A program made the position numbers and the translations under genes. Shown here piece after piece: positions 14,657-57,904 of a stretch of 64,000 nt of DNA. Under the pieces are notes generated by a model. It did no database searches and was not told the origin of the DNA. It saw nothing but the letters and a program-made list of their open reading frames with translations. Origin of the DNA: Flaccisagitta enflata (lineage: Eukaryota); the NCBI GenBank assembly GCA_965153355.1, contig OZ231126.1, positions 27,900,001 to 27,964,000 of the forward strand, given 5' to 3'. Position 1 is the first letter of the stretch; every line of letters begins with the position of its first letter.

Positions 14657-17352
14657 GGGTAAGACTCTTTTGCTCTAGCATAATCTCTTGGAAATCGATT
14701 GCAACTTCTCCTTCCTCGTTCAAGAGACGCTTCTGTGGCAGTGACTGAGGAATTTAAGGCCATTCATTTTTTTCTCCTTCCCCTTCCTTCCTCCCCCCTC
14801 TAGATTCCTTATGTCCAACGTTTCATGTATCTTTTTTTCCTCCTACCAATTTGCAACTATTCAGATTAAGTCGGTGGGCCTGTCACGTTGTGATGAGGGT
14901 CAAGTTATTCAATGCATGCACGCGACTCATTACATTCAGCTACTCATAACTACCCCTGCCCATGATTGAGATTTGTTCGCTTACTTTCACTCGCTATAAA
15001 TCCAAATAGAAATATTTCATTATTAATCAAACGCAATACATGTATTCATTTTACATTGTCCGTCTGTCTGATCTGTCTCTCTCTCTCAATTTGTCTCCTT
15101 CAATTTGTCTCCCGCAATTTTTCTGTTCTCTAATTTGCCCGTCTCTCAATCTGTCTGTCCCTCAATCTGTCTCTCAATCTGTCTCTCAATCTGTCTCTCA
15201 ATCTGTCTGTCAATCTGTCTCTCTCAACCTGTCTGTCTCTCAACCTGTCTGTCTCTCAACCTGTCTGTCTCTCAACCTGTCTGTCTCTCAACCTGTCTGT
15301 CTCTCAACCTGCCTGTCTCTCAACCTGCCTGTCTCTCAACCTGCCTGTCTCTCAACCTGCCTGTCTCTCAACCTGCCTGTCTCTCAACCTGCCTGTCTCT
15401 CAATCTGCCTGTCTCTCAATCTGCCTGTCTCTCAATCTGCCTGTCTCTCAATCTGCCTGTCTCTCAATCTGCCTGTCTCTCAATCTGCCTGTCTCTCAAT
15501 CTGCCTGTCTCTCAATCTGCCTGTCTCTCAATCTGCCTGTCTCTCAATCTGCCTGTCTCTCAATCTGCCTGTCTCTCCATCTGCCTGTCTCTCAATCTGC
15601 CTGTCTCTCAATCTGCCTGTCTCTCAATCTGCCTGTCTCTCAATCTGCCTGTCTCTCAATCTGCCTGTCTCTCAATCTGCCTGTCTCTCAATCTGCCTGT
15701 CTCTCATCTGCCTGTCTCTCAATCTGCCTGTCTCTCAATCTGCCTGTCTCTCAATCTGCCTGTTCTCAATCTGCCTGTCTCTCAATCTGCCTGTCTCTCA
15801 ATCTGCCCGTCTTCACTGTCTGTCTCTCAATCTGCCTGTCTCTCAATCTGCCTGTCTCTCAATCTGCCTGTCTCTCAATCTGCCTGTCTCTCAATCTGCC
15901 TGTCTCTCAATCTGCCTGTCTCTCAATCTGCCTGTCTCTCAATCTGCCTGTCTCTCATCTGCCTGTCTCTCAATCTGCCTGTCTCTCAACCTGCCTGTCT
16001 CTCAATCTGCTCTGTCTCTCAATCTGCCTGTCTCAATCTGCCTGTCTCTCAATCTCTGTCTCTCAATCTGCCTGTCTCTCAATCCGCTGTCTCTCAATCT
16101 GCTCTGCTCTCAATCTGCCTGTCTCTCAATCTGCCTGTCTCTCAATCTGCCTGTCTCTCAATCTGCCTGTCTCTCAATCTGCCTGTCTCTCAATCTGCCT
16201 GTCTCTCAATCTGCCTGTCTCTCATCTGCCTGTCTCTCAATCTGCCTGTCTCTCAATCTGCCTGTCTCTCAATCTGCCTGTCTCTCAATCTGCCTGTCTC
16301 TCAATCTGCCTGTCTCTCAATCTGCCTGTCTCTCAATCTGCCTGTCTCTCAATCTGCCTGTCTCTCAATCTGCCTGTCTCTCAATCTGCCTGTCTCTCAA
16401 TCTGCCTGTCTCTCAATCTGCCTGTCTCTCAATCTGCCTGTCTCTCAATCTGCGTGGCTCTCAATCTGCCTGTTCCTCATCTGCCTGTCTCTCAATCTGC
16501 CTGTCTCTCATCTGCCTGTCTCTCAATCTGCCTGTCTCTCAATCTGCCTGTCTCTCAATCTGCCTGTCTCTCAATCTGCCTGTCTCTCAATCTGCTGTTC
16601 TCAATCTGCTGTCTCTCAATCTGCCTGTCTCTCAATCTGCCTGTCTCTCACCCGCTCGTCTCTCAATCTGCCTGTCTCTCAATCTGCCTGTCTCTCAATC
16701 TGCCTGTCTCTCAATCTGCCTGTCTCTCAATCTGCCTGTCTCTCAATCTGCCTGTCTCTCAATCTGCCTGTCTCTCAATCTGCCTGTCTCTCAATCTGCC
16801 TGTCTCTCAATCTGCCTGTCTCTCAATCTGCCTGTCTCTCAATCTGCCTGTCTCTCAATCTGCCTGTCTCTCAATCTGCCTGTCTCTCAATCTGCCTGTC
16901 TCTCAATCTGCCTGTCTCTCAATCTGCCTGTCTCTCAATCTGCCTGTCTCTCAATCTGCCTGTCTCTCAATCTGCCTGTCTCTCAATCTGCCTGTCTCTC
17001 AATCTGCCTGTCTCTCAATCTGCCTGTCTCTCAATCTGCCTGTCTCTCAATCTACCTGTCTCTCAATCTACCTGTCTCTCAATCTACCTGTCTCTCAATC
17101 TACCTGTCTCTCAATCTACCTGTCTCTCAATCTACCTGTCTCTCAATCTACCTGTCTCTCTCTGCCCCTCAGGATGCTCCGGCAAGTCCTCGTCGACTGC
17201 ACCCTGGATCTAGTCATCGTCGTCGACCGGCCATCAAACGTCAAGGATCTTCCGCTTCTGGAGGTAGTTGGGGTGGGGCGACGGCCGACACCGCAGGTTA
17301 CGCCGGAAGCGCCAATGCTAACAACGACGAAGAGGACGAGGTCTATTTATGA
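2530..17352 (+). CDS. CARMIL: CARMIL/LRRC16-family capping protein regulator, 3' part (14 coding exons; 5' PH/LRR exons lie upstream of the window)
   Basis: Phase-consistent GT-AG exons: 2530-2721, 3027-3119, 3338-3403, 3737-3794, 5502-5773, 6577-6694, 6859-6965, 7781-7882, 9161-9253, 11089-11343, 11590-12312, 12889-13044, 13471-13553, 17173-17352 (TGA); about 830 aa. The motifs occur in CARMIL order: CPI-like LPRLDAHQPLVHAGKGRPRPVKNRR, CSI-like DEDVGQKDVENFY, basic/aromatic membrane-binding KKGRSWWPFKSKEK, GGFLAEMKGRK (cf. vertebrate CARMIL LLAEMKAK), a Pro/Ser-rich tail and the C-terminus EEDEVYL*. Individual exon choices are manual predictions. Confidence 0.8.
4930..5290. repeat. 16-bp minisatellite (AATCAATTGGTCGATC)n
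   Basis: About 22 tandem units in a CARMIL intron. Confidence 0.95.
5835..6433. mobile_element. Tc1/mariner-like MITE
   Basis: TIRs ACAGGGTGTGCAAAATTATCCGCACT / AGTGCGGATAATTTTGCACACCCTGT, flanked by TA on both sides. Confidence 0.85.
9538..10908 (+). mobile_element. HINE/Helentron-like non-autonomous element with ~168-bp internal tandem repeats
   Basis: 5' hairpin GTCCTCGACG..CGTCGAGGAC and 3' subTIR GTCGAGGACT near 10883; inserted in T runs; repeat units start at ~10312 and ~10480; 18-bp repeat at 10743-10862; homologous to 53273-54995. Confidence 0.7.
9581..10087. mobile_element. MITE with TGCTTCRCATAGCAAAAGT TIRs
   Basis: TIRs at both ends; an inverted second copy lies at 28910-29710. 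Confidence 0.8.
12550..12832. mobile_element. Small degenerate TIR MITE (TA-flanked)
   Basis: TAGGGCAGAGTGGTGTAAAATAATGGGTCACCTGGG versus CCCAGGTGACCCGTTTTACCCACCACCCCCTA. Confidence 0.55.
14369..14482. repeat. 16-bp minisatellite (TTGTCAGTCTGTGTGG)n
   Basis: About 7 units in two sequence variants. Confidence 0.85.
14563..14652. repeat. (CT)n microsatellite
   Basis: Direct reading. Further (CT)/(GA) runs at ~21428-21485, 21863-21947, 28262-28337, 29903-29966 and 61570-61773; (CA)n at ~22420-22548 and 54596-54679. Confidence 0.95.
15140..17162. repeat. ~2-kb 16-bp minisatellite (TCTCTCAATCTGCCTG)n
   Basis: About 125 units with variant blocks (AACC/TCTG at the 5' end, CTACCTG at the 3' end). 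It ends at the acceptor of the last CARMIL exon. Confidence 0.97.
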
Positions 17353-26100: not shown

Positions 26101-28259
26101 ACGGGACTGCTATATGAACTTTAGACTATACATCCATGTGATACTACAGATCTTGGAAATATGGATGCGTAAATTGGACTACTACAGGGTGTTAACTGTC
26201 AGCAACTTTTGACTGATTTGACCAAGCTTGCCTGCAAGAACGCCAGTGCAGTTAGGCTGCTTGTAATTGAGGGAATTTTTGCTAAGATTACCAGAATGAG
26301 TGAGAAAAAAAAGAAGTGAGGGGCCTTGACAGAGAAGAGATTTCCCAGTTTTACGACCTTTTTCCTCTCGGCGATAGCCGCATTATTGGTGAACCCGAAT
26401 AACTTGATTCTATTTCTAAGAGCCATTTTCATTTTATGTCATAGCATTATTTAACCAGTCAGTAATACCTGTTGCCCTGCTTTGCATGATTGTGAATTTG
26501 AGTGAGGGAAGCAAGGCAGTGCAGTGGCCCTGAAGAGGAGGAAGTCCTGTAGAATACAGTGGACTTATGTCCATTTGTCCGTTCACCCATTCATCAGTGA
26601 TTTGATGCCTGGGCTGGGAGAGCAGATTTGAAGCCCGAGAGGGTTTATTAAAGGCCCTGTGTTCTACAGGACTTTGTCCCATTCGGGGCCGCTGCCCAAC
26701 AGACACTTGCTGCTTAGAAGCAATATCGCAGGTCCGCATCTAGAATTAATCGTGGTTAAATTTGGTGTTCTCGGTTCGATCTCCCATGATTGGCGAGCAC
26801 TTTAATCAGCCATAGGCAAACTAGGGTCCCTTTATAGACTTAATGGAGAAAAATGTTGAAGCTCCTGCCGCAGCAGCAGCATCGTTAGTGCTTTGAGTCC
26901 CAGGGAGCGCGTAGTGACGCTGCGTCGCAGCGAACTCTGGGCGCGTCCTCGCGCTGCTGCTTTTCTGTTTTCGTCAAGACTTGAGAGATCTATTTTTCCT
27001 ATTTGTGCTCTGAACAACCTAACTCAAGCGCGAATGGACGAAGGAATTTCACAACAATGTGACTGCAGTTTTCTTTTTTAGATGCGTCATCGCATTTCTA
27101 TATGAGGGTCTGTCCGTCCGTCGGTAGTTATGTCCGTTACGCTTGTTCTCAAATCGCACAGATAACGCGTAGAGTTGCCCGGATGGGCTCTTTTTTTTTC
27201 TATTGCATTCCAAATCTGGGAATGCTGGCACTTGCATTCGACCGCGTGCGACTGGTGCAACAGGCTGCCCTTACAAAAGCTCACGCGCATTTTGTTTTTC
27301 TCAACTAGCATCCAGTTTTCGTCCTCCTCATTTTGGTGATTGTTAAAGAATTCTTAAGACGAAGTTCTAACAAAACAAACCTCGATTTTTGGGCAGCGGC
27401 TCCAAAGGGGTCGATGACCTATGCTTTCACGTATGTGGGGAATTTTCTTCTCCTGCTTCTTCTTTGAAACACCCCCGCACTTCCGGGCTCATATCTCAGC
27501 CTCCAGGCCCATACCCAGTCTCCAGGCCCAAATCCCAGTCGTGAGGCTAAAATCCCATTTCCAAGGCTCAAAGCTCCAAGTCTCTCAAGGGATTTGGGCC
27601 TCAAGACTGGGAGTAGGAGAAAATTCCCCAAATGTGTGAAAGGCTGAAAGCATAGGTCATTGACCCCTTTGGAACCGCTGCCCTGCTCCCTCCCTCAAAC
27701 TCGATTACAACTTATTTAAGCAGGGCACGGGTACCGCTGACCATCTAACGCTTTTGCGACTATGCAATGATTTAGCTGTTCAGCATGTCTTAAGTCTTTG
27801 GCATAAATAGCGACAATTCCTGGCAACAAGTGACGCGGGGTCACAATATCGTTGCGGACGGGTGGTCAGGGGCATCCAACCCCCATCCACACCCCAACCC
27901 ACCCCCAACACTCAAACATACACAAAAAGTATCGAAAACGCTCGTTTTCCCACTTTTCAACTTGATCACGATGACGGACCGACGGACCAACGGACGGACG
28001 GACGGGCAAAGCCTCTTATAGGGTTGCGTGTCCGCAACTAAAAATAGCATCAATGCGTCATCTCCATGATTATTTAATAGACTTACCGACGGATAGACCA
28101 ATGGACGGACAGAGGAAAAAGATCATCAACAAACTGGGGCGCTTTGAACAAGTCTGGATCGACGGCCACCATAGTCGCGAATGGGTGAGCAAAAGCGGAA
28201 ACCCCAAAAAGATTTTTCTGACGGACCGACCAACCGACTGACCAAAAAGTGGCTTATAT

Positions 28260-34200: not shown

Positions 34201-37200
34201 AAGTAGTAACTTTGTTTTGCTTGTCATTTCTTGACGACTACACTTAGAGCCATGTGGTTTGCGCCATTCGATTGGAAATTTGATGAACTTTCCAAACGTC
34301 CCCAATTTTCCTTTGTTTACATAACTTTTTCGGTAGTCATGTCCCATAATGCTTGTCGATTTACATATTAGCAAGATAGTATATTTTAACTATATGGGAG
34401 AAAAATTTGATTTTTCAACTGCGCGGGAAAGAACAGGGGGGGAATCAATCGAAGGTTATGGAACTACTACACAAATAAAATCTTCCCACCTCAAAACAAG
34501 CATCAAGTTTAAAAATGTGCCTCTCCTTAACTGACAATGATACTGACCGTAGAGCGGTCTCATATTAAAAACTTTAAGTAACTCTTTCAAATGGGACCAA
34601 TCTGGTTGTTATAACTTCGTTGGTTAGGAGCAGCACTCTTCCAAAGTTGATGGTAGTTTTCAGATGGGAAGATTTTTAGTCGCGTGCACGCGACTCGACA
34701 ACCCGCTTTGTCCCTCGGTTGGTTGGTTGGTCACGTTTCATTTTTATGATCTTTTTTTTTTTACCTCACTGCTCCTGCCCAAATGGTCTAGTGACTTCAA
34801 ATATGGCCCCTGCCCACCCGCACGCGACTTCGGTAGCCGTGTATCCGGTCTTGCTTTATGTTAAGACTGTCCGGAAGTAGTGGAAGTTAGTCTTCGACTT
34901 TTTGACATATTCGAGAAAAACATAGTTTTCATTTTCTTATGCGAAAATCTAGAAACTCATTCGGTTGATTGGGGTCTCCAATGAAATTGATAGGGTAGGG
35001 GTAGGTGTGACACTCTTCACATTCCCCACCATATCCAGGTCAAGAAGCGCTCGATCGGATGCATTCGACTCCGTGGATCCCGAAGAGGAGGAGAGGCTCT
35101 CTCGCTGTCGATGATTCCAAGATGGCGTCTGCTCGACTGCAGAGTGGAGGAAATCGAGGAAAAGGAGAGAGATCTTCGATCGACGGAGGAAGTGGAGGAA
35201 CGCGCGCGCGCGCCGAAAGCGCTGACTTCCGGTTGAGGATTGATGGACTGTATCTCCTCAACCGCTTAGAGGAGAATAGACTTCGACCCCTCTAACGAAT
35301 TCCCACGACGCGACGGTTTCATTGAATTTTGTTCCATTGCTGCCAAATAATTTCAAATCTCGTGATGCTTTGATTAAATTTGTTATTTATTCCTAGGTTA
35401 AGTAAAAGTAGCTTCCCTGACTCTCTTACTGACATTCGACTTCACAATCTCAGTTAAAGACTCGATTTTGATGCTTTTTCCCCGACTTCCCTGCCCTGCG
35501 CCTAGATTGGAAACCGTTCGACAACATCCGTGTAAGTCCTTGACCTTTTACCTTTTTGGCGCGTTTACAGAAGTATCCTTCATTGATGTACAGAGTTTGT
35601 CCTAACCTTTTTCTTTCTCTCTGTCCATCAGGATTCCACGAATAGACTGATTTCGCGGACAACTTGACTGCTCATCTCAACAATTCGTTCTAAGCGGGTG
35701 TACGTTCCAAATCATTAGCGCAGCTACGCAGTGGAGTCAGTTCTCGCGATTACGCATCAGGAGCTTGATAAGAAATCAAGACGTTAAACGCTCTCAATTC
35801 GTGGAATCAAAAACCATCAACGATCCACGCAACGTCAACGATGTCGACCGCCAACAACAACGCCAACACCGACGCGACGTCAATGCCGCCACCTTCGCTG
35901 CCCAATCAACGCAGGAAGGCTTTCTGACCAACCGACTGCGTGTCCGTCGTTTCCGACTCGTCCGTCTATGCGGGCGCAATGGACCCCGTAGCCACGACGC
36001 TTCGCGGATTACGAAAGGCTCTACGCAACACGCGCAACGCCTACATGTCGTCGTTGAAAACCGCCGATACCCTTAACGATGACGATATTTTGGACTTTTA
36101 CCAAGATATGGACTGCCTTCGAAAGGAAGTGTGGTTAGCGGCGTGGCGATTGATCAATACGACGAAGACTTACGCACACGCAGAATCGACGAACAACCCC
36201 GACAAAGCGGCGTCATTGTTGTCGACAGCCGAAAGCTCATTGACGGAGGTACGGAAACTGTGGGACGCGTCATGCTTCCACGACAAAAACACTTTTGCGT
36301 CGCATCTGTTCCTGCCGACCTACCACGACATCCACGACGAGTCACCAGAGACTGGAACAAAACGCGCTCTCGAGATGACGATGGGGTCGTCGACGATTTC
36401 GTCCAATCTTTCACGACGACGCAAATCAACGCCGAACGTGACCGGCGACATGAAGACGCGGAGAGGACGACTTGCCCGTCGGCACGGAAGCAGCGAATCT
36501 CAATGCAGCGGAGCAACGTCACAACGCGCCGCCCCACACGCCAGGCGCGTTAGAAGACGCCGAAGAGATACGCATAAACTTTGAACCTCCAACACCGGTG
36601 ACGCCGGCAAAATCACGTTTTTTGTCGGCCAGAGACGATGAAGACGACGACACCAGCGACGCAATGGAAACGTCATGGCCGGACGCTGACGCCAACCTCC
36701 CTCCAGGCGCCGTCGGCGGCGCCCCTCCCACACAAGACCTTCTCAACATGTTACAACAGTCGATTGCCGACGGTGACAGAGTCGCTCAAGGCGACGCGAT
36801 GGTGCAAGTCGTCGGACGTCTCGTCGACGACGTTAACCAAGTTCGACGCTCGGTGGCGAGAGAAGCACGCGCGAACACGAGATTCCGTCTCAGCTCGCGC
36901 TCTGTATCTCAACAACGGGAAGAGAACGCCCGGCAGATGACGGCAAACATCGCATTAAACGCAGCCGTTAATGCCCGAACAGATGCGGTCACGGCCGGAA
37001 TCGACGAGAGGAAAAGAAGGGAGGAGGAGGAGAGGAGGAAGAAGGAGAAGGAGGAGGAGGAAAGACAACGCATCCACGCTGAAGAAGTGAGAAGGAAGGC
37101 AGAGGAGACAAGAAAGGGGCAAGAGGAGAAAAGGAGGATAAACTTGAAGAACAAGATGGCACTGGAGAAAAGAGAGAAAGAGGAGAAAGAAGAAAAGAAA

Positions 37201-40200
37201 AGGAAAGAAGCGGAAAGGAAAGCAGAGGAGGAGAGAAGGAAGGCGGTGGCTAAGAGAGACGCGGAAGAAAGGAAGAAGATGGAGGAGAAGAAAAGACGCG
37301 AAGAAAGGAAAAAGGAGGAAGAGAAGAAAAGGAAAGAAGAGGAGGAGAGGAAGAAGAGAGAAGCGCAAAAGAAAAGTCAGCAAAGACAACTGCCATCCAA
37401 GACGCCGCCCTCAACCGCACGTGAACATCCTCTCCACGAGCAATTGCGCACGAGACAAGATGCAGCGGAGCAAGAAAAGAACGCGATGGATCACGCGGAC
37501 GCAATGGCAAGAGTCCAACAACTGATCAGCGATCTCAACCTGGAGGACAGCGTCGTTTTGCAGACACGTGTTCAGCCGCGCAAATCGACGCCGCCATCAC
37601 CAAGCTCACCCGTCATCGTCCACCAAATCGCGGGTGATCTTCCAGCTCCGCAAGCATCCCGCAACACACGCGGAAGTCAACGCCCTCTGGTCGACGACGT
37701 CTTCGACGACGAAGGGTTCGAACGCGTCGACAGACGGAAGTCGAGAAAGACGCCGCCCCCAACGCCGTCGCCTCCTAGATATCAAAGACGTCAAACCGGA
37801 AGTGACTCCGCGCGAAACGGCCTCGCGCATTCGCAATCCTTCGCCGAGAGGATGAACGCGGTGTCCTTCATCGATAACCCGATTGCCTACGACGCCCGCG
37901 TCAGAGCGAAGGACGTGGGATTGAGGGAGATGCGCGCAGCACGCCCAAGAGAAGCGTATGGATACCTCGAGCCAATCGACTATATCATCGCCAAATCCAA
38001 GTTTGAAAATGCCGCCTCTAACATCGAGCTAGACGAAATTGATAAAGTGACTGAATTGGCCAACGTCTTCGCGAATCCAGCGAAGGAAATTATCGACGGT
38101 CAACAACTCATCATCAAGGCGCACAATATGCGCCGCGTCTACAGCACCTTGTGGAAACGCCTGGACGAAATGTTCAACACGAGCGTCAATCCGTTCCAAT
38201 CGGCCGTCGATAGCATCTGCAGGAAAAGAAAGGTCCCAGAAAACGACATGAAAGCCCATCAAGCGTTGATTGGCACGTTGTACAAACTGGAAAGCGTCGC
38301 AGAACTGCTGAATGCAACTGGGGAGTGTGATCGTGACGTCCACATCCGCCGCATCATCAACGCGTAGGTGCCACATATCTCGACTGACTATTGGAAAGCA
38401 AGCGCTCGTGAACAAGCTCGCCACGGCACGGCTTACGGCTTCCAAGAACTCATCGAGGAGGTGAAGCATTGGGTATCGTTCAACAACCTCAAAGAACCGA
38501 CACGCATGGCGCCGAAACCGACAAAGGTTGCAGCGACGGCAGTCGGTCCGGCGACCTTCAAGGAACAGCTCAACTCACCGCCGAAGCAACAACCCAATGA
38601 CATCTGCAACATTTGTGGAGGTCGCCACCACTCCCATTCGTGTCATGTTTCGGAAGCCATCCCATCAGCAGAGGATCGTGTGAAGAAGTTGGCGGAGAAA
38701 CGTCTATGCTTTCATTGTTTCTGCCCAAACCATTCAGCGCGTGACTGCAAAGACAAGCCGACGTGTTCATCCTGTAATAAGAGACACGCAACTCTGCTGC
38801 ATGATCGCCAATTCAAGCTGAGAGGAAATGGGGAAGGAATCACGTTTAAGACGCCAAATCCCGCCGCATTAGCCGCAGCCGCCGCCGCCTCCAAAACCGT
38901 TCCTCCAGCGCCCCCAAGCAGCTCGTCGACGGACGACTCTGCATCTGATGAAGGAAGAGTGATGGAGGCGTGACTCGCTGCTACCTCCGCGATGAGGACG
39001 GTAGTTGCGGAGGATGATGTCACGCGACCGATTGTCCCCGTAAAGATCACCAACGCGTCGACGGGCCGTTCCACCATAGTGTTGGGGATGATTGACAGCG
39101 GTGCGGATCGTGACGTTTTATCGCTTCAAATCGTTAAAAAATTAGACTTACCAACCGAAAAGATGCTGATGCGCGTGCATACGGTCAATTGTGAAGTGGT
39201 GGAGGAGAAAGTCTTAGCGTCCTTTATCCTTTCATCGATTGATGAGGAATACAATGTCCACATCAGTAACGCATTAACGGGAGAATTATTGACGGGTGAA
39301 GCGGATATTGCTCCATGCCAACGCGACTTCACAAATCAATCTCATCTTCGCAACGTTCCATTTCCAAAAGTAAATGGTCCTGTCCAATTGATCATCGGCG
39401 CCGCCCATTACGACGCGACGATGCCTGTGGAGGCAAGAAGAGGTCCATTGGGATCTTTGACAGCCTTCAGATGCGGTTTTGGATGGACTGTAGCAGGAAA
39501 GAGTGGACGAAAATCTGATGATACCGCTGTCATTAACGCAATCCATGTGGATAACGTCGCATTGAGCAAATCTCTCGACCGCATGTTCTACCATGACTTC
39601 GCCATTGTATCGGAGGAAGAAATGGGCCAGTCTGAAGAGAATCGTCGCGCTGTAAAACGGGTGATGGAGACGATATACTTCGACGAGAATCTCCAGAAAT
39701 ATGTCGTGGGGCTTCCATGGCTGTATGAGAAAGAGAAAATCGTCGAAATTATCAAGTCTGTAAATGCACGTGCGATGACGATCAAAAGGACAAAAAGCCT
39801 CCGATATAAACTCTCAAACGACCATGACCTCTGCAATCGCGTCTTCAAAGAAATGGACAAATTTGTAGCCACGGGCGTGGCGATAGAGATTGATCCGAAG
39901 AACGACGATGCAACCATCTCATCGCCACGCTGGTATTTACCCATCCATGTGGTGGAGGAAAGGAATAAAACGCGGATTTGTCACGATGGACGCGCGGAGA
40001 CTGGCGGCATTTGCCTCAATGAGCTACTGATTGGAGGCCCTAATATCATGAACGTGTTGACTGAAGTTCTTATGAAATTTCGCCTTCATAAAATCGGTCT
40101 TATGACCGATATTAAGGCGTTTTTTCATAATGTCCGCGTCTATCCTGAGGACGCGGACACGTTCAGATATATGTGGTTCACTGACAAAAGCATGAGAGAA

Positions 40201-43200
40201 GCAGTCGTGATGCTCTTCTTGGCGCACATCTTTGGATCAGTCTCATCAAGTCTCGTCACCAGCTATGTTTTACGCCATCATGCAGAAAAGGTCAAACCAG
40301 ACTTCCCAGAAAATGTCTACGAAATGTTGAGACATGCCTTCTACGTTGATGACGGCTCTGGTGGTGCGGATTCAGTTGACGAGGCACTGCAGTTGAAGCA
40401 AGATCTCATCGCCGCCATGAAGAGCGGCGGATTTACTTTAACCAAGTGGAAGTCGAACGCGGTGGAAGTGATGGACGAGGATCCGAATGTCGCGGTCGAC
40501 TTGAGCGCCAAACTCGAGGAGCCAACGAAGGTCTTGGGGGTCCAATGGTTGCCGTCGACGGACTGCTTCATCTTCAGATGCGATCCAGAAGCGTGTAAGA
40601 GGGTGGCAACAACTCCTCGCGAATTGGTCTCCATGCAAGCCGACAACTATGATCCACTAGGATTCACAGCGCCCCGCGCCCTTGAAGGGAGAAGGTGTCT
40701 CCAGTTGACGAGAGCTTCCGAGAAAGGATGGGATTCGACGATGGAGGAGGCGTTGATCAAACGCTTCGCCAAATGGTATTCTGCGACTCCATTGCTGATC
40801 CAAATTGAAATTCCGCGCCATATCGAGTGGGGCATCGTTAAGGCCATTCGACGAGAAGTTCACATCTTCTGCGACGCCGCCATCCCTGGATTTGGAGTAG
40901 TGGGCTATTGGTTGGTGGAAGACGAGGATGGAACAATCCGCGTTACCATCTTGTGCGCCAAGGCCCACGTCGTCCCTCTTGATGCGTCAAAAGCGTCGCA
41001 CCACAATTCGGTGCCGAGGTTAGAAATGACAGCGGCAGAGAAAGCGGTGAAACTCAAACTTTTCATCAAGAGAACCATTCCAAAGGTGACCGAGGATATG
41101 GTGACGTTCTGGTCAGATTCAGAGGCTGTGCTGAAGATGATTTTTGACCATAAGTCTAAACGCCCGAGCTTCTTTGCAAACCGACTTTCAAAAATCCACA
41201 GCGGCTCAAGTGATTCTCAATGGAGATGGGTTGACACGGACAACAACCCCGCGGACTATTGTTCGCGGGGTATTGACGCCGGCGACAAGGACAAATGGGA
41301 CATTTTCCATTTTGGTCCAAAGTTTCTCTACCTCCCCAAATCTGAGTGGCCGACAATGAATATTGCGACGGCGCCGGAGGCATCAATCAACGCCGTCGCG
41401 ACAGGAGCGGTGGAAGAAGAGGAGGGGGAAAAGGAAAAGGAAATGTTCGCCTATGCAGTGGCTGCCCGTTGCCAGGAATGGGTGGCAAAATTGCGTTTGA
41501 TCGCCGTGATTGTGAAGTGTGCGCAGCGATGGAGACAGAAGGTGAAGGCAAAGACTAGAGCAGCGGCGACGACGCTGCAAAATCCCTACTCTGTATCTAT
41601 GGCTGAATTGTACGACGCACAACGCCGCTTGATCAACGCAATCCAGTTCAAACATTTCCACGGAGAGATAACTAAGTTGAAGGCGGTGGGAAAAACGACG
41701 CCGCTGATCAACGACGCCGGCGCCAAAGTTATCTGCAAGACTCTACGCCATCACAATCCGGTTGTCGACGATAAAGGGACGATGCGTGTCGGAAGCAGAC
41801 TTGTAAACGCGGACATTGGCCATGATGAGAAATACCCGATGATTCTCCCTTCGAAGGATCCGAACGTCGCCTCTCTGATTCGCCACGTCCACCATCAGGA
41901 TCTCCACGCGGGCCCAAAACACGTCTTATGCCAACTGCGACGCTTCGTGTGGATTCTTCGAGGTCTCCAAGCAGTGAAGACAGTTATCCACCATTGCGTC
42001 ACGTGCCAAAGGAACTTCAAAGATCCTATGAAGCAGCAAATGGCGCCTCTTCCTTAACGACGGCTCATTCCAACAGCGCCCTTCGAGGAGGTGGGACTTG
42101 ACTGTATGGGTCACTTCCTGGTGAAACTGAACGGCAGGGCGGATCATAAAGTCTGGGCAGTGGTATTTACCTGCATGGTTTCGAGGGCGGTGCATGTGGA
42201 GGTGTTGTTTAAAATGGACACAGAGGCAATGATCAACGCCATCATTCGATTCGCGGCGAGACGACAAACGGTGCGTCGATTCATCTCCGACTGTGGCACC
42301 AACCTGGTTGGAGCAAATCGCGTCATGAAGGAGGAGATGCAGTCGTGGAACGCGTCGTCGACGGTGGCTCTTCAGCAGCATGGACTCCAATGGGACTTCA
42401 TTCCTCCTGGGACTCCCCATTACGGCGGCGTATGGGAAAGGGTCGTATCCCTTTTCAAAAAACATTTGGCATCCATTACTTCCGGTCACGTGCTCCATTA
42501 CGATGTCTTCCAAACGGCAGTGATCGAGGTGGAAGGAATTCTCAACCGCCGACCTCTCACGCCTTTGAGCGACGACCCTAGCGATACATCGGCGCTGAGG
42601 CCGGTGAACATCTTGCATCCGTCTACGTTCTCACACTCGTCGGCAGCTATTCTCCCTCCAGAGACCGGAAACGACGCCGTGGGAACGAGATGCCGATGGA
42701 GAAACGCACAGGCCCGTGTCGACGCCTTCTGGAAGGTATGGCGCGCCGAATACCTTCAGTTGCTGCACGCAAGGAGCAAATGGACAAAATCGGAAGTTAA
42801 CATCAAAAAAGATGCATTGGTCATCATCGTTGACGAGACGCTTCATCGGCATCAGTGGTCTTTGGGACGCGTCGTCGAAGTGGAAGGATCTGGTGATCAT
42901 GTCCGGAAAGCACAGATCCTACGCCCCGACGGCAAGATCGTCCTCAAGGATCGGTCGAAGATTGTCCGATTGGAGCTGGATTCAGATTAAAAACGGATAA
43001 GTGTGAAGAGAGAGAGAGAAAGTAGACCAGAGAGAAGCATAAGTGTTTCTATTTGTAAAGACTACACATGGAAATGAGGGTTTCTTTCTCTCATGAATTT
43101 TTGGTCTTGTTTACTTTTTCTCAGTCGGTCTGTCTGATATGTTTTTGTGTGTGATTACGGGAGAGAGAGAGGTACATGGTGCCCCCAGTCAGTTGAGAAT

Positions 43201-46200
43201 GTCCGCATGATTGACTGACAATCTAAATTTTGCCATGCCATTTCAATCTCGTATTGACCATATAGAGGCATTCGTTCGTTCATTTTCTTTTCTGTTTTAT
43301 CCATATCGTTGACTGTTGAGTGTGGAGGTCATTTGAGGCGCTGATCGAAGAGTTTTATTTCTTTATTTGCGTATACCATTTAACCTTCCTTCGATGTCAA
43401 TGAATATGTCTTCCCTTTTCCGTTTGATTACACCTCGAAATCTGAATTTTCTCCAAAAACAGGCGTTTACACTATCTTACGCTAAAAGCTTCCCCTTGTC
43501 GGTATCGTCGCATAACTGTTGCAGTAAAGATCCATCGTGTCGCAGCAGAACAACCAAGGCACGCCAGACGAGATCCGCGACGCGAGGAGGCAGCGAATGG
43601 CGCTTGCCCAGGACGAGTTGGTGAGAAATCATGAGGAGGAGACGAGGAGGATGGAGGAGGAACGGGCGAGGGTGGAAGAGGAGAAGAGGAAAGTGGAGGA
43701 AGAGAAGAACGACCCGGAGAAGAAGAGGAGGAGGCAGGAGCAGGAGTCCAGGGCAGCGTCCCTCAGAGAACAACGTCGGCTTCGCGGGTTGCAACAGTCT
43801 GCTGTTGGAGGAGCTGATGACGTCATCGACGGGGTCAGCCATCTCTTCAACAGCTCGTCTTCCGGTGCGTGGACCGTTACGGACCCTATTCCTGCTTGGG
43901 CCCTCAACGCGTTCGATGCCAACACCTTCGCCGACAAGCGCGCCGCCAGTGAAGCGCGTCGTCAAGCCGACGATGCGCTCCGGGCGGAAAGAAAGGCGAG
44001 AAGAAATCAAGCTGCCAACGAAAGCTTCGATACGGCAGTTTCGGGAGTGGAAGCCTCATGGGGGATTCGACGTCGGAGTCAACCACGGACGCCCCCCCGC
44101 CGCCACGTGGAGCAGAAGGAGTAGAGCGACAAGATTTAAATGACCCTAACAACTTGGACTTTGACGATGACGACGACGACGACGATGACGATGACAATTA
44201 CGAAACTCAGGATGACAGTGAGGATGATGACATGGATACTCACGAACATGACGGAAGGGGAGAGGGACTTCCTCCCGGGGAGGTTGCTCAACCCGCCCTT
44301 ACAGGCCCCCAAGGGGTATTGACTGCTCCTCCTCTTGCTCCCCCAATTCTGCCGCCGCCGCCGCAGACGTCGCAGGCGGTCGTGGAGTCGTCGACGTTAC
44401 AAGTAACGCCGGCCGCAGACTCGACCGTACCGGCGCCGTTTCAAGCATCACCTGACGCGACGCTGGTGATCCCGCCGCACATCAGTGACCTGTCCTCCAT
44501 CTCGCAGGAACAAGGAGTCGAATTGGTGAAGATCTACAACGCCCAAGTCGACGCCCTCATCGAACGGAAGCACACTGCGATGTACCACGACAAGCAGCGT
44601 AGCTTACGTGCGGAGAGAGATGCCCTTCATCCACAAGCCGAGCGAAGGGCATATGTTCCTACGCAAATCATCAGAGACGAATTAGTCGAAGAGGACGGAG
44701 AGATTGCGACGGTTGAAACTCGCGAGACGCTTCAATTGTGTAAAATCATCAACATCAGATCAATTGGAGCAACGGCGGACATGGGAAATGGGACTTTGAG
44801 AGACATTTCCCGTGGAAAAGCCTCAAATCAGAGAAAAAGACGACGTGAAGGAGCCGCTCGTCGGATCGCGGAGGCTACGCGTTCGACCGGAAGTGGCAGC
44901 GATCAGCGTCAGACGCCCGTGACGCAGGATCCTCCACAACATCATCCGAGAGACGATCGACGAGCCAAAGCTGGCGGCAACAATCTACAAATCGAAGTGA
45001 GTGAGAAGAGACGTCGGGTGAGCAGGGGTGGACCGCCGGATGCATCCGCATCGTTGTCATCGACGGTGATGGATGGTCCTGCGAGATTACCACATGGTCC
45101 TGCTCCCCAGCCTCCTCCTCCTCAACGCCAGCGGTCACGTGACATTTCACCAATCCGTGTCCCAACTCAAACGACGACGACAACGAATAACCAAGGGGGT
45201 GCGCTCGCAGGGGCAGCCGCAAATCTGCCCCCACCTCCTCCTCCTCCCGTCAACGACGACCAACAGCGACGAGAGGAGCAAAACGCCAACAAAAAGAAGA
45301 GAAATCGTCGTCCAAAAAGGAAGTCTGGGGATGCGTCGATGTCCAACAGGTCGTCAACGTCGACTGCATCCGCTTCTTCTCCTTCACATCGCCCTCCCCA
45401 ATCGCCGGAAGACCTTCTGACCGAGAAGATGTTGGCCATCGCCATCAAGCTGCCAAATCATCCTCGGCCAAAGGACATTCAAAAAGTTGTAGACATTCTT
45501 CCGGCGGCATTCTATCCCAACTCATCTCCGATGGATCGCGCGATCCACGCTGCCGATCACGCCGCGGATAGAGCCAGATTGGCGAGGAAGCTTATCGAAC
45601 AGTACAATTTTAGGATGAAAGTTGTCGGTGAGCATGACGCAAAGGTTGCTCAGATGGCCCACGTCCACGCTGAGTTCTCTCAGCCCGACGGACAGATGCC
45701 TTCGACTTCCGGCACTCAACGCCACTCCGCGTCGTCGAGCAACCACGCGCCACCTTCCGGCAGAAACCCCCCTCCACGCCACAGTAGGAAAGACGACGCG
45801 CCATCCTATCGTGGAGGCAAGGGCGGCAGGGGTAAAGGCCGGAAGTAGAGGGTCTCGTCGCCATGATCCCGGCCATCATCTTCCCACTTCAATCGCGCGT
45901 ATCATACCGACGTTTCACGTCGTCGCGGAAGACTAGCGGTTGATCATCCAATGGCGACTCGAGATGCTTCCGGTGACGGACAGGCCGGCCGTCCTCGCTT
46001 CTCTAGAGGGCGGTCGGGGGAGGGGGTCCCACCGGGGACCCCCCTGCGACCCTCCCGCGTAAGTGTCGAGGGGTAGGGGGGGTCTTGAATTGCTCATGAA
46101 TCAATTGTACCAAATTAGAATATTAAGCGTATGATTTGAGGAATGAGAATCAGTTGTAACTCTCCAAATCCGTTTCTCCATGCCCATCCCGGGTGTGGGG

Positions 46201-49200
46201 GAATCCCCCCTCCCACTTACCTTTCAGAGACGCACGTGCTGGAGTGATGGACAATCCTAACGGGGCGTTGGTACGTAGAATAGTATAGTGTATACATTAG
46301 TATAGACCACTTAGCATATAGTCTAATTATTTATTTCAGTCCATCATTCCCGTGGATCTAGTTTCGTTTAATTTCCTTTTTTTTAGCATGAAGACTGGAT
46401 GCAGAATGGAGCAAGAGGAGCAATTCATAACCAGACCGTAGCGATAGCCCGGACGATCGACGGTGGTAGGTGTCTCTTCTCCTAGAACCCATTTTCTGAA
46501 TCGTCTTATCCGCGCGAGATCCACATTATTTATAATAGTGTCTTTGTAATTTTAAATTTTGTTTTGAGATGAGCCCCGGATGTTGTCATAGCTTGTATAA
46601 TTTTAAATGAATGGTATTCCCTGACAAGAAACTAGTTAGATACGAGATTTGAAATTTTTTTGGCAAATATTTCAAATGGGGGGACTGTGACATTCTTCAC
46701 ATTCCCCACCATATCCAGGTCAAGAAGCGCTCGATCGGATGCATTCGACTCCGCGGATCCCGAAGAGGAGGAGAGGCTCTCTCGCCGTCGATGATTCCAA
46801 GATGGCGTCTGCTCGACTGCAGAGTGGAGGAAATCGAGGAAAAGGAGAGAGATCTTCGATCGACAGAGGAAGTGGAGGAACGCGCGCGCGCGCCGAAAGC
46901 GCTGACTTCCGGTTGAGGATTGATGGACTGTATCTCCTCAATCGCTTAGAGGAGAATAGACTTCGACCCCTCTAACGAATTCCCACGACGCGACGGTTTC
47001 ATTGAATTTTGTTCCATTGCTGCCAAATAATTTCAAATCTTGTGATGCTTTGATTAAATTTGTTATTTATTCCTAGGTTAAGTAAAAGTAGCTTCCCTGA
47101 CTCTCTTACTGACATTCGACTTCACAATCTCAGTTAAAGACTCGATTTTGATGCTTTTTCCCCCGACTTCCCTGCCCTGCGCCTAGATTGGAAACCGTTC
47201 GACAACATCCGTGTAAGTCCTTGACCTTTTACCTTTTTGGCGCGTTTACTGAAGTATCCTTCATTGATGTACAGAGTTTGTCCTAACCTTTTTCTTTCTC
47301 TCTGTCCATCAGGATTCCACGAATAGACTGATTTCGCGGACAACTTGACCGCTCATCTCAACAATTCGTTCTAAGCGGGTGTACGTTCCAAATCATTAGC
47401 GCAGCTACGCAGTGGAGTCAGTTCTCGCGATTACGCATCAGGAGCTTGATAAGAAATCAGACGTTAAACGCTCTCAGTAGGGTATTTGATTATCCTCTTT
47501 CATTTGGCGCCAAGCAAAATGCTCTACGACAAATATTTTTTGCGCTATGATTTTTTAAAAATTTGTTTATAAAAAATTCAAATTGAATTTTCGATTCATT
47601 TTGATTTTAAATAGGATCAATAAAGGAGTGTATTTACGTTAGTTTGAGCATGCAAATATAAGAAAACATGTTTTTGGGCATAGCTGCTCATCTCTGAGGT
47701 TGTTTTTGAGCAGTCTAGCTCATTTAGCTCAGTTTTTTTTTATTTCAAATGCGATAAATGAATGAATATTTTGAAACATTTTTAAGCAAGCAGATACAAA
47801 AAAGTATATCAGTGAGCTTAGGTGCTCGCCTGCGAGGGTGTTTTTAAGAATTCTATCTCTCTTAGCTCATTTAGCTCAGTCTTTTTTTTCTTCTAATTTT
47901 TAATGAAATAAATGAAAAAATATTTTGATGTGAGCATGCAAAAGCATGTCAGTGAGCATAGCTGGTTATCTGATTTAGTGATTTTAAGCATTTTAGCTCA
48001 TCTAGCTCATTTGGCTCAGTCCTATTTTTCTCTGATTTTCAGTTCAATCAATATATACAATTGCTCTTGATTTGATCTAACAAATATAAAAATTTGCAGT
48101 GACTGAAAACAGAAGCTTGGTGAAAAGTGACCAATGCTTACTACTTTTTTCCTTACGGCGACAGCCGCTATTACTGGTATGTACACCCCTGCTGTTTTGT
48201 ACGCACCGCTGTAGGCGTTGATTTTTACTCCACCCGCGCAAGATGCCATAACGTTGTATGGGTTGATGCCGGACATCCACACCTTGTATTGAGCCTTCTC
48301 CAGCACTTTTCTGCGCCAAAAATAAGAAATGCGAGAGGAGTTGAAATTCACATTATGGAATTCGGCCATCTAACCTGCTAGTGGTCGGACAGGAACCCCT
48401 AAAGGCAAAGGCGGAACCAAAAACAAGTCCTCGTCATACCCGCATGCTTTTGATGTGGCGACGCCCTTCTTGAAATCGCATCTATATCTATTCCCCGAGT
48501 TTGCGGGACAGCAATTGTCCTTGAGACTCTTCCACATGTCCCCACCCAAAAAGCCGTGATAATACATGAAGTAAAGGGCAGAATTGTCGTTGATGTCGTA
48601 ACTGGAGATGCCATTTCCCACGGCGATACCCTTCAGATTAATGGCGGGATCTTGCGCTGCTCTTTCAGCCAAAGTTGGGACGTAGACGCCGGCATAACTT
48701 TCCCCTTGGTTTTGATAAAAGGAAGGCTCAACTGTTATTTCAGCAAAAAAAGGTCCATCTATTTCTGTATTATGTCTATCACTCTCCCTACCTGTGATGT
48801 AAAAATCGTTCTTCTTGAACTCAGGATACTGGTTGAAAAAGTCCGTGAGAGCTGCGTGATTGGCATGAGCAACCTGTACGTCGCCGGTTTCGTATTTGCC
48901 ATCGTCAGAATAGGAATATCCGACGCCTTAATAAGAATGAAGATTCATTAGTGTCTGCCATGGGTTAAACGGCGGATATATTTACGTGATACAGCTTAAG
49001 TGCTGCTCTATCCGTCAGTGCAATAATACAGTGACTTGATCTATGATTTTTTTTCATTCTGCTGCATTCACCTGCAGGGGCTTCAATGTACAGAACGTTG
49101 GCAAGTTTGTTCCATGAATAAGGGTTCAACTTGATTGTCTTGCCATCAGGCTGTGATGGGATTGGGAATATAGTTTAAAAGTGGAGCAAAGGTCTTTTAA

Positions 49201-51931: not shown

Positions 51932-53272
51932 TTAGACATTGGGGTGTTAAAAATTTTGCGGTCTGTAAGCGCGTGCGCCGTGCGGTTGAACAGGGACAGT
52001 GATTCACTTGCCATTGTGGTTATCGGGGAAAAAGCAGAAACAAGTGACGCGGGGTCACAATATCGTTGTGGATGGGTGGGCAGGGGCAGCCAACTCCCAT
52101 CTACACTCAACGCCCCTCCCAACATCCTTCCAACACAGATATAAACACAAAGCTTCTGAAACGCTCGTTTTCTTACTTGACGACTCATGCTTACGGACCA
52201 GCGGACGGAACGACGGACCAATGGACAGACGGACAAAGCCTCTTATAGAGTTGCGTGTCCGCAACTAAACACTGCTTGAGAACCAAAATAATTCTGTTGG
52301 ACGGATAGATGCACGAACAAACAGTTCATCAACCATCAAAGCCTGCCAGAGCGACATGCCAGCAAAGAGTACCAATCCTCGTGATGTTTAGCATGCTAAC
52401 AAGTGACGCAGGGTCACAATATCGTTGCGGTCGGGTGGGCAGGGGCACCCAATCCCCAATCCCACCCCTAACCACTCCTGCCACGCACTCACATGCCCAC
52501 ACACACACATAAAAACAAATGCAGTATCATACATGCGCGTTTTTCGCGTTTTCAACTCGAGCGTGACGGACCGACCAACGGACGGACGGACAGACAAAGC
52601 CTCTTATAGTGTTGCGTGTCCAAAACTGAAGAGTGTGAAAGAATAACGGAACGAAGACAGTGTGACTTAAAACGCTCGCTCAACACTTATATGGGCTTTC
52701 GGCGTCAGCCCTTCTTTGGTCGATTTGTTGCATTTGCAGAGGAGTTGCAAGGTCATCTGATCGGGGAAAAAATCGAAGTTAGTCTTCGATTTTTTGACAT
52801 ATTTGAGAAAAATATGGTTTTTGTTTTCTTATGTGAAAATTGAGAATCTCAACCGAGCGATTGAGGCTTCCAATGAAATTTATAGGGTAAGTAAATTTGA
52901 TAATTCTCTTTCATTTGGCGCCAAGCAGAATGTTCTACGACCAATATTTTTTGCGTTATGATTTTTTAAATATTTATTTACAAAAAAATTTAAATAGAAT
53001 TTTTTTCGATTTATCATAATTTTAAGGAGAATCAATAAAGGAGTGTATTCATGTTTGTTTGAGCATGCAAATACAAGAAAACATGTCTATGAGCATAGCT
53101 ACTTATCTGTGAGGGTGTTTTTGAGCATTCTGGCTCATTTTGCTCAATCTTTTTTTCTGATTTCAAATGCGATAAATGAATGTTAAAGCAAGCAGATACA
53201 AAAAAACATATCAGTAAGCATAACTGCTCTTCTGTGAGGGTGTTTTTGAATATACTAGTTCATTTAGCTCAC

Positions 53273-54995
<1,723 letters not shown>

Positions 54996-55108
54996 TTTTA
55001 TAGGATAAATAGATAAACATTTGATGTGAGCATGCAAATATAAGAAAGCATGTCAATGAGCATAACTGATTGTCTGGTTGAGTGATTTTAAGCATTTTAG
55101 CTCATCTA

Positions 55109-56490
55109 CAGGCCTGAATTTAGCAATTTTGTTGAGCGTGCACACCGGGCACGCTCCTCACAGTTTAAGCGTGCCCGACAGAGAATGAGCGTGCCCGGTT
55201 TTTGACCTTATCTTTACATTTACTTTAGATTCAGTCATATAAACAATACATTACTATAGTGATCCCCCAGCATTTGTGTCCACATTAAGCAAAGAATAAA
55301 CAAAAAAGGGAAGAAAAATGATGCTAGTTTATTTGTGTTCTTTCTTTTTGTTACAATATCAAACAACTAAAGTCCTTAAAACCTATTATGACTGAATAAC
55401 ATTTCTGTTAATTCAGAATTACCCTTGATGAATAAAAGACAAAACAAATGAACAAACAAATAGACAAATGAATGAATAAATGTTGAAATGAGAGTTAACT
55501 CAATTGAGTTTTCCTTTGATAGATGGTTTCAGAGATGCATCTTCATTTTAATACCATACGACATGGTTTTTTTTAATATGAGATTTTCACTGCCACAGCT
55601 GATTTTTCACTCCCAAGATAAATTGATCAGACACTTTCAATGAGCCACCTAGAAGTTGTGGATGTGTATTTTTGTTGAGAATTTTCATGGATATCTCATA
55701 AGGATGACTTATTTAGTGTAAAAAGTAATAATATGTGGGTAAAAATGCAACTTTTTATAAAGAAAATTATCTTTTATCACCAGACAAGCCCCACGAAAAA
55801 TTCTTAATTTGCATTGAAAATGACTAAATCAAAAAACTAAAAACATGGCCCTTGTCTAAAGACGTATAAGAAGGGAGCCATGTTCTCGGAAATGCAAAAA
55901 AATTCAACCGGAAGCAGATTAAGAATTTTTCGCAAAACCTCATCACAATTTTTATCACTCAATTTTCAGTAAATCGTTTTCCTATTCCCTATCTTTTTCT
56001 CAGTATGTTGATTATAAAACGTATCCCCGCTACGAATCTGGGTTGGAAGAGCGCAGTGATGTGATTACCACTCAGAATCAGCAGAGAGAAGCAATAGTGT
56101 GAAGGGAAATCCATGAATTAGCGCTAAAATATAGCTGACAAAATTATCGCGCGATTGCGCCGAGCGTGTCATACACCCTGTAAAATAAGGAAAAGAGGAA
56201 TAAATGAATGAATGAATAAATGGATGAATGAATGAATGAATGAATGTATAAATTGATAACTGGCAAGATGAATGAATAATTGAGATGATAATTTAACAAA
56301 TCTAAAACCTGTTTCAAACAAATAAATGATTGATCTCCACACAAAGAAAAAAAAATTGTAACCTTTTAAAAATTTTGATAGTCCTATGTGAGAGGAGAGT
56401 GCCAGCCGGGCACGCCATCAGCAAAACCAGCGTGCCAGACAGCAAAACAGAGTGCATCGGGCACGCGGGCACGCTCTAAATTCAGGCCTG
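55109..56490. mobile_element. hAT-type non-autonomous DNA transposon, copy 1 (1382 bp)
   Basis: 15-bp TIR CAGGCCTGAATTTAG / CTAAATTCAGGCCTG; 8-bp TSD CTCATCTA; subterminal GCGTGCCCG/GGGCACGC motifs. Confidence 0.93.
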
Positions 56491-56522
56491 CTCATCTAGC
56501 TCAATTGGCTCAGTCCTATCTT

Positions 56523-57904
56523 CAGGCCTGAATTTAGCAATTTTGTTGAGCGTGCACACCGGGCACGCTCCTCACAGTTTAAGCGTGCCCGACAGAGAAT
56601 GAGCGTGCCCGGTTTTTGACCTTATCTTTACATTTACTTTAGATTCAGTCATATAAACAATACATTACTATAGTGATCCCCCAGCATTTGTGTCCACATT
56701 AAGCAAAGAATAAACAAAAAAGGGAAGAAAAATGATGCTAGTTTATTTGTGTTCTTTCTTTTTGTTACAATATCAAACAACTAAAGTCCTTAAAACCTAT
56801 TATGACTGAATAACATTTCTGTTAATTCAGAATTACCCTTGATGAATAAAAGACAAAACAAATGAACAAACAAATAGACAAATGAATGAATAAATGTTGA
56901 AATGAGAGTTAACTCAATTGAGTTTTCCTTTGATAGATGGTTTCAGAGATGCATCTTCATTTTAATACCATACGACATGGTTTTTTTTAATATGAGATTT
57001 TCACTGCCACAGCTGATTTTTCATTCCCAAGATAAATTGATCAGACACTTTCAATGAGCCACCTAGAAGTTGTGGATGTGTATTTTTGTTGAGAATTTGC
57101 ATGGATATCTCATAAGGTTGACTTATTTAGTGTAAAAAGTAGTAATATGTGGGTGAAAATGCAACTTTTTATAAAGAAAATTATCTTTTATCACCAGACA
57201 AGCCCCACGAAAAATTCTTAATTTGCATTGAAAATGACTAAATCAAAAAACTAAAAACATGGCCCTTGTCTAAAGACGTATAAGAAGGGAGCCATGTTCT
57301 CGGAAATGCAAAAAAGTTCAACCGGAAGCAGATTAAGAATTTTTCGCAAAACCTCATCACAATTTTTATCACTCAATTTTCAGTAAATCGTTTTCCTATT
57401 CCCTATCTTTTTCTCAGTATGTTGATTATAAAACGTATCCCCGCTACGAATCTGGGTTGGAAGAGCGCAGTGATGTGATTACCACTCAGAATCAGCAGAG
57501 AGAAGCAATAGTGTGAAGGGAAATCCATGAATTAGCGCTAAAATATAGCTGACAAAATTATCGCGCGATTGCGCCGAGCGTGTCATACACCCTGTAAAAT
57601 AAGGAAAAGAGGAATAAATGGATGAATGAATAAATGGATGAATGAATGAATGAATGAATGTATAAATTGATAACTGGCAAGATGAATGAATAATTGAGAT
57701 GATAATTTAACAAATCTAAAACCTGTTTCAAACAAATAAATGATTGATCTCCACACAAAGAAAAAAAAATTGTAACCTTTTAAAAATTTTGATAGTCCTA
57801 TGTGAGAGGAGAGTGCCAGCCGGGCACGCCATCAGCAAAACCAGCGTGCCAGACAGCAAAACAGAGTGCATCGGGCACGCGGGCACGCTCTAAATTCAGG
57901 CCTG
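56523..57904. mobile_element. hAT-type non-autonomous DNA transposon, copy 2 (1382 bp)
   Basis: Same TIRs; its own 8-bp TSD CCTATCTT; about 7 substitutions versus copy 1. Confidence 0.93.

Follow-up and report, generated by a model that had tools for sequence, protein, structure and literature searches.

Priming of minus-strand DNA is a defining step in the replication of long terminal repeat (LTR) elements. In Tf1, the primer is the first 11 nucleotides (nt) of the element's own transcript, released by RNase H. The Bel/Pao elements are treated as the family Belpaoviridae (genus Semotivirus), for which the part of the International Committee on Taxonomy of Viruses (ICTV) profile drawn on here gives a host tRNA as the primer, an 18-nt primer-binding site (PBS) for tRNA-Arg or tRNA-Gly, and a genome size of 4.2-10 kb. 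Self-priming is known for the Tf1/Sushi lineage of Ty3/Gypsy, and has been predicted from sequence alone for the Tcn1 chromoviruses and for the Ty1/copia elements TAR, Houba and Osr-1, whose relatives are tRNA-primed (PMC6317226, in the part used here). Here we analyse a 64,000-nt stretch of the genome of Flaccisagitta enflata (GenBank assembly GCA_965153355.1, contig OZ231126.1, positions 27,900,001 to 27,964,000 of the forward strand), called the window throughout and numbered from its first letter, which holds a full-length but coding-defective copy of a Bel/Pao LTR retrotransposon, 12.5 kb long. The bases adjoining its 5' LTR are complementary to its own leader. We think it fairly probable, on the sequence evidence set out below, that the element comes from a Bel/Pao lineage in which the tRNA primer has been replaced by the element's own RNA, the likely source being the spliced leader RNA.

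The locus has much in common with the described systems. As in Tf1 and Tf2 of Schizosaccharomyces pombe, and in the Tf1/Sushi lineage, the LTR-adjacent bases are complementary to the element's own leader, over some 11-13 nt, and no tRNA PBS is evident; the complement is 12 nt and exact in the window, 10-11 nt in four relatives, and 9 nt plus a bulge in a fifth (L014). As in Tf1 and Tf2, the pairing of primer and PBS would close a stem-loop over U5, the two segments lying 65-165 nt apart in the window element and its relatives. With the described Bel/Pao elements it shares the set and order of domains, TG..CA LTRs, a 5-bp target duplication, a polypurine tract (PPT), and gag and pol as two open reading frames (ORFs). 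With Tcn1 and TAR/Houba/Osr-1, as presented in that part of PMC6317226, it shares a self-priming predicted from sequence, in the company of tRNA-primed relatives.

In spite of these similarities there are important differences: (i) Unlike Tf1 and Tf2, the element belongs to the Bel/Pao superfamily; its domains in the window are of the Bel/Pao type, and not those of the Ty3/Gypsy Tf1/Sushi lineage. (ii) Also unlike Tf1 and Tf2, the paired segment borders or spans the splice junction predicted for an intron-like segment of the LTR, the upstream exon giving 1-7 of the pairing bases across the window element and its relatives. (iii) Superfamily and hosts differ from those of the plant and fungal elements Tcn1 (a chromovirus) and TAR/Houba/Osr-1 (Ty1/copia), for which the same part of PMC6317226 mentions no intron or splice-junction link. 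(iv) Unlike the Belpaoviridae as described in that part of the ICTV profile, the window element shows no evident 18-nt PBS for tRNA-Arg or tRNA-Gly, and its length lies beyond the range given there. A literature search, supplementary files with possible PBS tables lying outside it, found nothing on Bel/Pao self-priming or on a splice-junction primer, and the main text of a Bel/Pao survey (PMC3118150) makes no mention of PBS, primer, tRNA, intron or splicing. A first-pass annotation of this DNA, made from its letters alone, likewise knew of no description of self-priming for Bel/Pao. Judged from sequence, ours would be a known type of mechanism in a superfamily without prior description of it, and the possible splicing-dependent twist would be new.

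The window element and the complement at its LTR end

The 5' LTR is followed by 12 nt (35797-35808, ATTCGTGGAATC) that are the perfect reverse complement of 35632-35643 (GATTCCACGAAT) inside it, and no gap separates them from its terminal CA (35795-35796), just as the first-pass annotation had read them; the 3' LTR carries its copy of the inner 12-mer at 47313-47324. A repeat search scored the pair as 15 nt at 93%, with three LTR-terminal bases included. The chance of a 12-nt match adjoining the LTR is 780/4^12, or 4.6e-5, close to the earlier estimate of about 5e-5, and the observed match was reached by none of 2000 dinucleotide shuffles and by none of 1000 shuffles in a second test. The earlier failure to recognise a tRNA-type PBS was also repeated: none is evident, and the sole TGG in the first 25 nt lies at 35802-35804. 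The tRNA 3' end that this TGG would imply is A/U-rich and lacks C61 of the T arm, which we take to be conserved in tRNAs. With no TGG-type PBS adjoining the window LTR, the post-LTR bases instead match the element's own leader. tRNA genes were found neither in the 64-kb window nor in the 38 relative loci scanned.

The first-pass annotation had further proposed a second helix closing the loop, between 35648-35654 and 35772-35778. That pair of sequences does exist, but it stands at the level of chance, about 0.8 such 7-mers being expected per 165-nt span, and in its minimum-energy fold the window leader forms a local hairpin there instead. No recognisably common helix of the kind of a second conserved, U5-IR-like stem appears in the folds of the relatives.

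Immediately upstream of the inner 12-mer lies the intron-like segment, retained in both window LTRs. Its donor, GTAAGT (35532-35537), scores 4/4 and is the top one among the candidate introns sharing the acceptor at 35629-35631; a CTAAC branch-like motif (35602-35606) stands 26 nt upstream of the 3' splice site, followed by a pyrimidine tract and the acceptor CAG, and the 12-mer starts at the next base. The predicted splice, 35531^35632, would add T35531 and thereby lengthen the complement to 13 nt.

The element itself is well defined. Pfam finds, in the long frame, Peptidase_A17 (2.7e-28), DUF5641 (4e-20) and Integrase_H2C2 (9.2e-07), together with RVT_1 (3.8e-05; 23.9 bits, below the curated cut-off of 29.6) and rve (2e-06; 28.4 bits, below the curated cut-off of 32.6). 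This set of domains is that of Bel/Pao, and the element is therefore assigned to that superfamily, as it had been at first pass, and the Pol tree likewise places it among Bel/Pao relatives. The hallmarks of Bel/Pao, namely TG..CA LTRs, a short target duplication and a PPT before the 3' LTR, are all present (Table 1). The two LTRs are identical at 782 of 792 aligned positions. Both flanks consist of repeat DNA, and the ends of the element are supported because a paralogous copy of the flanking repeat, at about 52850-52935, runs through uninterrupted by an insertion.

Its coding capacity has been lost. ORF1, which starts 44 nt downstream of the LTR and has no Pfam match, is broken by in-frame stops at 35925-35927 and 38365-38367 and by a frameshift between 36449 and 36460; its intact relative P0049 (1049 amino acids, aa) shares about 90-91% identity with it (tblastn). 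ORF2 has a single in-frame stop (42055-42057) and is 98% identical to P0001 (pol, 1332 aa), aligned over the whole stretch. P0001 and P0049 are near-identical intact proteins in public data and, because of the stops and the frameshift relative to them, the window element is a dead copy of a many-membered family. Behind the proteins P0002-P0017 stand further families, at 40-56% identity. ORF3 is acidic and rich in proline and serine, and has no usable match in the Atlas; since it belongs to no Pfam family and does not resemble ORF3 of the related element L001, it may not be an env gene.

Table 1. Features of the window element (window coordinates) and LTR junctions of the related elements. The sign ^ marks the boundary between the upstream and the downstream exon.
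Feature	Position (strand) or junction	Evidence or post-LTR sequence	Remark or match
Target-site duplication GTAGG, 5 bp	left 35001-35005 (+), right 47477-47481	read directly	
5' LTR, 791 nt, TG...CA	35006-35796 (+)	direct repeat with 46686-47476	
Intron-like segment, 100 nt	35532-35631 (+)	donor, branch-like motif, pyrimidine tract, acceptor	same layout in five families
Putative self-primer segment GATTCCACGAAT	35632-35643 (+)		first 12 nt past the intron-like acceptor
Putative PBS ATTCGTGGAATC(A)	35797-35809 (+)	zero gap to LTR	closes the minimum-energy fold of the leader
ORF1, gag-like	35841-38973 (+)	tblastn of P0049, ORF lists	
ORF2, pol (reverse transcriptase, Peptidase_A17 region, integrase, DUF5641)	38992-42990 (+)	Pfam, P0001 alignment	
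ORF3, 596 aa, low-complexity	44058-45848 (+)	no Pfam family	
PPT AAATGGGGGGAC	46674-46685 (+)		adjoins start of 3' LTR
3' LTR, 791 nt	46686-47476 (+)		has the same intron-like segment and 12-mer
L001 (43% Pol identity)	ACG^GATTAAAT	ATTTAATCCGT	11 nt; 8 nt unspliced
L003	CGTTAAG^TAC (exon 1 end from L008)	GTACTTAACG	10 nt, 2 nt past ACA
L009	TATCGAG^TAC	GTACTCGATA	10 nt
L010	TAACGAG^TAC	GTACTCGTTA	10 nt
L014	TCGTTG^TTT	(GT)AAACAACGA	9 nt, a bulge and two more pairs

Primer-binding sites in related elements

An alignment of 27 Pol relatives served as the query for a search of metagenome contigs, Gag being too poorly conserved as a probe (three proteins only). This search gave 94 relatives and 80 loci were kept; a search of genome contigs added one distant locus, L081, and two scans of viral contigs returned no relative. 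Twenty-two loci with sequence upstream of gag were inspected: 12 have a TGG-type PBS, five are of the junction type described below, and five were not typed (L004, L008 on its 5' side, L023, L032 and L055). Fourteen loci with 3' fragments of closer relatives showed no recognisable PPT and LTR start, except for a doubtful site in L029.

The 12 TGG-type loci carry an ordinary PBS 1-5 nt past the LTR end or directly before gag. In one group (L011, L012, L016 and L026) it is presumably initiator-Met-like, and in the other (L018, L019, L020, L022, L024, L025, L043 and L081) presumably His-like. Five families without such a PBS, represented by L001, L003, L009, L010 and L014, share the layout of the window element: a small GT..AG segment with a pyrimidine tract and, 65-152 nt downstream, past an ..ACA end, the complement of its exon junction (Table 1). 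The LTR DNA of different families cannot be aligned by BLAST, so that each family's LTR was read separately; the LTR ends of the five were taken from a PPT followed by a TG start and from TGT..ACA ends. The complement begins at the first post-LTR base in five of the six elements, the window copy included, and in all six its gap coincides with GT..AG boundaries that have a pyrimidine tract.

Co-variation between the post-LTR and the LTR-internal sequence in related families, which the first-pass annotation had named as a check on its reading, was found, and two observations weigh most. When L009 and L010 are aligned, the clearest common blocks are the end of exon 1 with the donor and the LTR end with the PBS, and one reciprocal (compensatory) change between the two blocks keeps the base pair. 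The contig of L003 begins within the intron, and the missing end of its exon 1 was predicted blind from its PBS; In L008, of the same family and 99.7% identical, the 3' LTR bears out the prediction with CGTTAAG and, directly behind it, a GT donor. The motif occurs in only 13 of 20000 shuffles of that part of the L008 LTR.

The two types of PBS also separate by descent. The 37 Pol rows of a FastTree tree comprised 18 locus ORFs, 18 database proteins and P0001; loci with only fragments of Pol, among them L026, L043 and L081, were left out. The tRNA-type elements form a clade of 10 rows (nine tRNA-type loci and the untyped L023; support 83), and its sister clade (26 rows; support 99, asterisked) holds all the junction-type elements; P0042, a protein of the oyster Ostrea edulis, stands inside the latter clade as the sister of L014.

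In the shuffle test, where every candidate intron of each leader was set against shuffled downstream sequence, the observed match was reached, per 1000 shuffles, by 0 for the window, 90 for L001, 19 for L009, 23 for L010 and 226 for L014. Fisher combination over the relatives only (L001, L009, L014 and the L003/L008 motif, with L010 excluded as kin of L009) gives p = 1.8e-4. Eight of nine TGG-type control loci put through the same procedure had a top junction match of 4-8 nt, L043 being without a candidate intron; in the five junction-type elements the top match was 9-13 nt (p = 7.8e-4 by the exact Mann-Whitney test, and 4.8e-3 when each family is represented by a single element).

Several other observations were made on these relatives. 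The LTR intron-like segments of L009 and L010 measure just 33 and 37 nt; from the sequence, this suggests hosts with very short introns. Between intron and LTR end, the motif GACTACG[CT]GTAACT is common to three families whose LTRs are otherwise unalignable (L003 at about 85-100, L010 at about 305-320 and L009 at about 7268-7285). L001 has a perfect 16-nt inverted repeat (1149-1164 and 1636-1651, 471 nt apart), the second arm of which ends at the donor of the LTR intron, with a perfect 12-nt pair (1231-1242 and 1537-1548) nested in it; it could be a long-range stem of exon 1 or an inserted inverted-repeat element. Finally, L081 (7666-13860) is a complete Bel/Pao element with 206-nt LTRs and a TGG-type PBS 5 nt past the LTR, in a contig labelled as a metagenome-assembled genome of Candidatus Poribacteria; host (animal) DNA binned with the bacterium is here more likely than a bacterial gene.

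A proposed spliced self-primer and its alternatives

Self-priming is the best reading of these results because the post-LTR sequence, standing where a PBS by definition lies, matches in each family the leader of that family and not a shared host RNA; the co-variation supports this reading. The sequences show that the two segments are complementary and where they lie, that signals resembling splice sites are present, that relatives co-vary and that the sister clade has tRNA-type PBSs; on this ground we infer splicing, priming by the duplex, a position for the cut and an action in cis or in trans, as follows. The bases 35797-35808 (or 35809) would act as the PBS and pair with the leader segment 35632-35643, which starts at the 3' splice site of the LTR intron; in the relatives, the paired segment spans the junction of exon 1 and exon 2, and the primer helix would be complete only after removal of the LTR intron. 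A cut after 35643, made by the element's RNase H if the analogy with Tf1 holds, would free a 3'-OH from which minus-strand DNA could start. Because the primer would be copied in plus-strand synthesis, the PBS would be kept matched to the junction, and its tracking of the junction would be explained. If the primer acted in cis, strong-stop DNA would measure 153 nt and the intron of the 3' LTR would have to remain unspliced in the copied RNA; if it acted in trans, a spliced RNA would prime unspliced genomic RNA.

Self-priming as such had been proposed in the first-pass annotation, and this part gains from the co-variation and from the tRNA-type sister clade. The source of the primer changes: it is probably the spliced leader RNA, because the complement spans the exon junction in the relatives, and not a 5' end of the transcript as in Tf1, against which the pairing of upstream-exon bases in the relatives argues. 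The folding energies point the same way, the spliced duplex being the stronger in all six elements (-13.9 to -19.7 kcal/mol, vs -3.2 to -18.7 kcal/mol unspliced), and in each of the five spliced leaders that were folded, the minimum-energy structure is closed by the stem of junction and PBS. A wider proposal, which we put forward tentatively and at somewhat less than an even chance, is that a large clade of marine-invertebrate Bel/Pao elements, the oyster protein included, may prime from its own spliced leader, the PBS being the complement of the exon junction of the LTR intron, with splicing selecting the RNA that serves as primer and the PBS being rewritten in each cycle.

A number of points weigh against priming by a spliced leader. 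Splicing gains only 1 nt in the window (13 vs 12) and 1 kcal/mol (-19.7 vs -18.7), for which reason the window copy is no test of the splicing part. The LTR ends of the five relatives do not come from observed LTR pairs. L032, which falls in the same clade as the junction-type elements, has no match longer than 7 nt and counts as a miss for the junction pattern. Taken singly, the shuffle tests are weak for L001 (90/1000) and L014 (226/1000). Unrestricted scans for GT..AG junction complements find them as frequently on the control strand (3 vs 4, 23 vs 32 and 188 vs 148); the junction pattern therefore counts only where the intron is independently defined, and the loose scans, in which both strands show a high background, were not counted as evidence.

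The element might instead prime itself without splicing, its PBS pairing with the unspliced leader: in the window as one uninterrupted helix, in the relatives as two parts between which the intron-like segment loops out. The splice-site-like signals would then serve another purpose, such as a subgenomic RNA. This would suit the window copy, in which all but one of the 13 paired bases are contiguous at little cost in energy and both LTRs keep the intron, and it fits the unspliced minimum-energy folds of L009, L010 and L014, which still pair the end of exon 1 with the PBS. We nevertheless consider it unlikely: unspliced, L009, L010, L014 and L003 pair only 3 nt beside the priming end, their duplexes on the side of the 3' splice site are weak (-3.2 to -6.0 kcal/mol), and it would leave the coincidence of the complement gap with GT..AG boundaries and a pyrimidine tract in six of six elements.

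To a similar degree we doubt that the primer is a host RNA (an unusual tRNA or a piece of one, or some other small RNA) pairing at or near 35797-35815, with the complementarity of leader and PBS serving RNA structure in packaging, dimerisation, or the regulation of splicing or translation. In its favour, the part of the ICTV profile used here describes Bel/Pao elements as tRNA-primed, and the TGG at 35802-35804 stands 5 nt past the LTR, the same offset as that of the TGG-type PBS in L081. However, the sequence past this TGG is unlike the TGG-type PBSs of the sister clade, and the implied tRNA 3' end would be atypical by the tRNA rules that we assume. Moreover, the complement starts at the very base that defines a PBS in five of the six elements, and the post-LTR bases vary by family, each following its own junction, which would be unexpected for a shared host primer.

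That the match is a functionless product of chance or of local rearrangement is very improbable, for although it was picked post hoc from the whole window, 8-nt inverted matches are common within the window LTR and loose scans have a high background, the window match has a chance of 4.6e-5 and was reached in 0 of 3000 shuffles in total, the pattern recurs in the unalignable LTRs of five families together with a compensatory change and a confirmed prediction, and the relatives alone give p = 1.8e-4.

Other features of the window and meaning of the finding

The sole host-gene signal found near the element is an exon of a serine carboxypeptidase (Peptidase_S10; 48370-48927, minus strand). Several repeats also lie in the window. 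Two arrays of a 24-nt unit with telomere-like TTAGGG/CCCTAA (826-1137 and 1324-1737) stand in opposite orientation, and two long 16-nt satellites occupy 15127-17160 and 62890-64000, with 128 and 69 copies, respectively; the long ORFs in the first of these are artefacts, because this satellite reads open in each of the three forward frames. At 55104-57911 a 1414-nt unit is duplicated in tandem, the copies being 99.3% identical. At 27505-27612 a hairpin-type inverted repeat (CCCAGTCTCCAGGCCCAAATCCC ... GGGATTTGGGCCTCAAGACTGGG) mimics the LTR pattern in a scan, and the look-alike match at 27525/27589 was rejected as belonging to such a repeat and not to an LTR.

If self-priming by this element is true, it would be the first report of it in Bel/Pao, the third superfamily of LTR retrotransposons, and loss of the tRNA primer would have arisen in all three. 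Annotation pipelines that seek only tRNA-type PBSs will miss or misjudge elements of this kind. Control of PBSs by tRNA fragments is described for mammalian endogenous retroviruses, in the portion of that literature used here, and the elements described above would evade control of this kind. Should the primer be made from a splice junction, the element would have its replication linked to the host spliceosome, a connection for which we found nothing comparable in print, and splicing would decide which RNA can prime.

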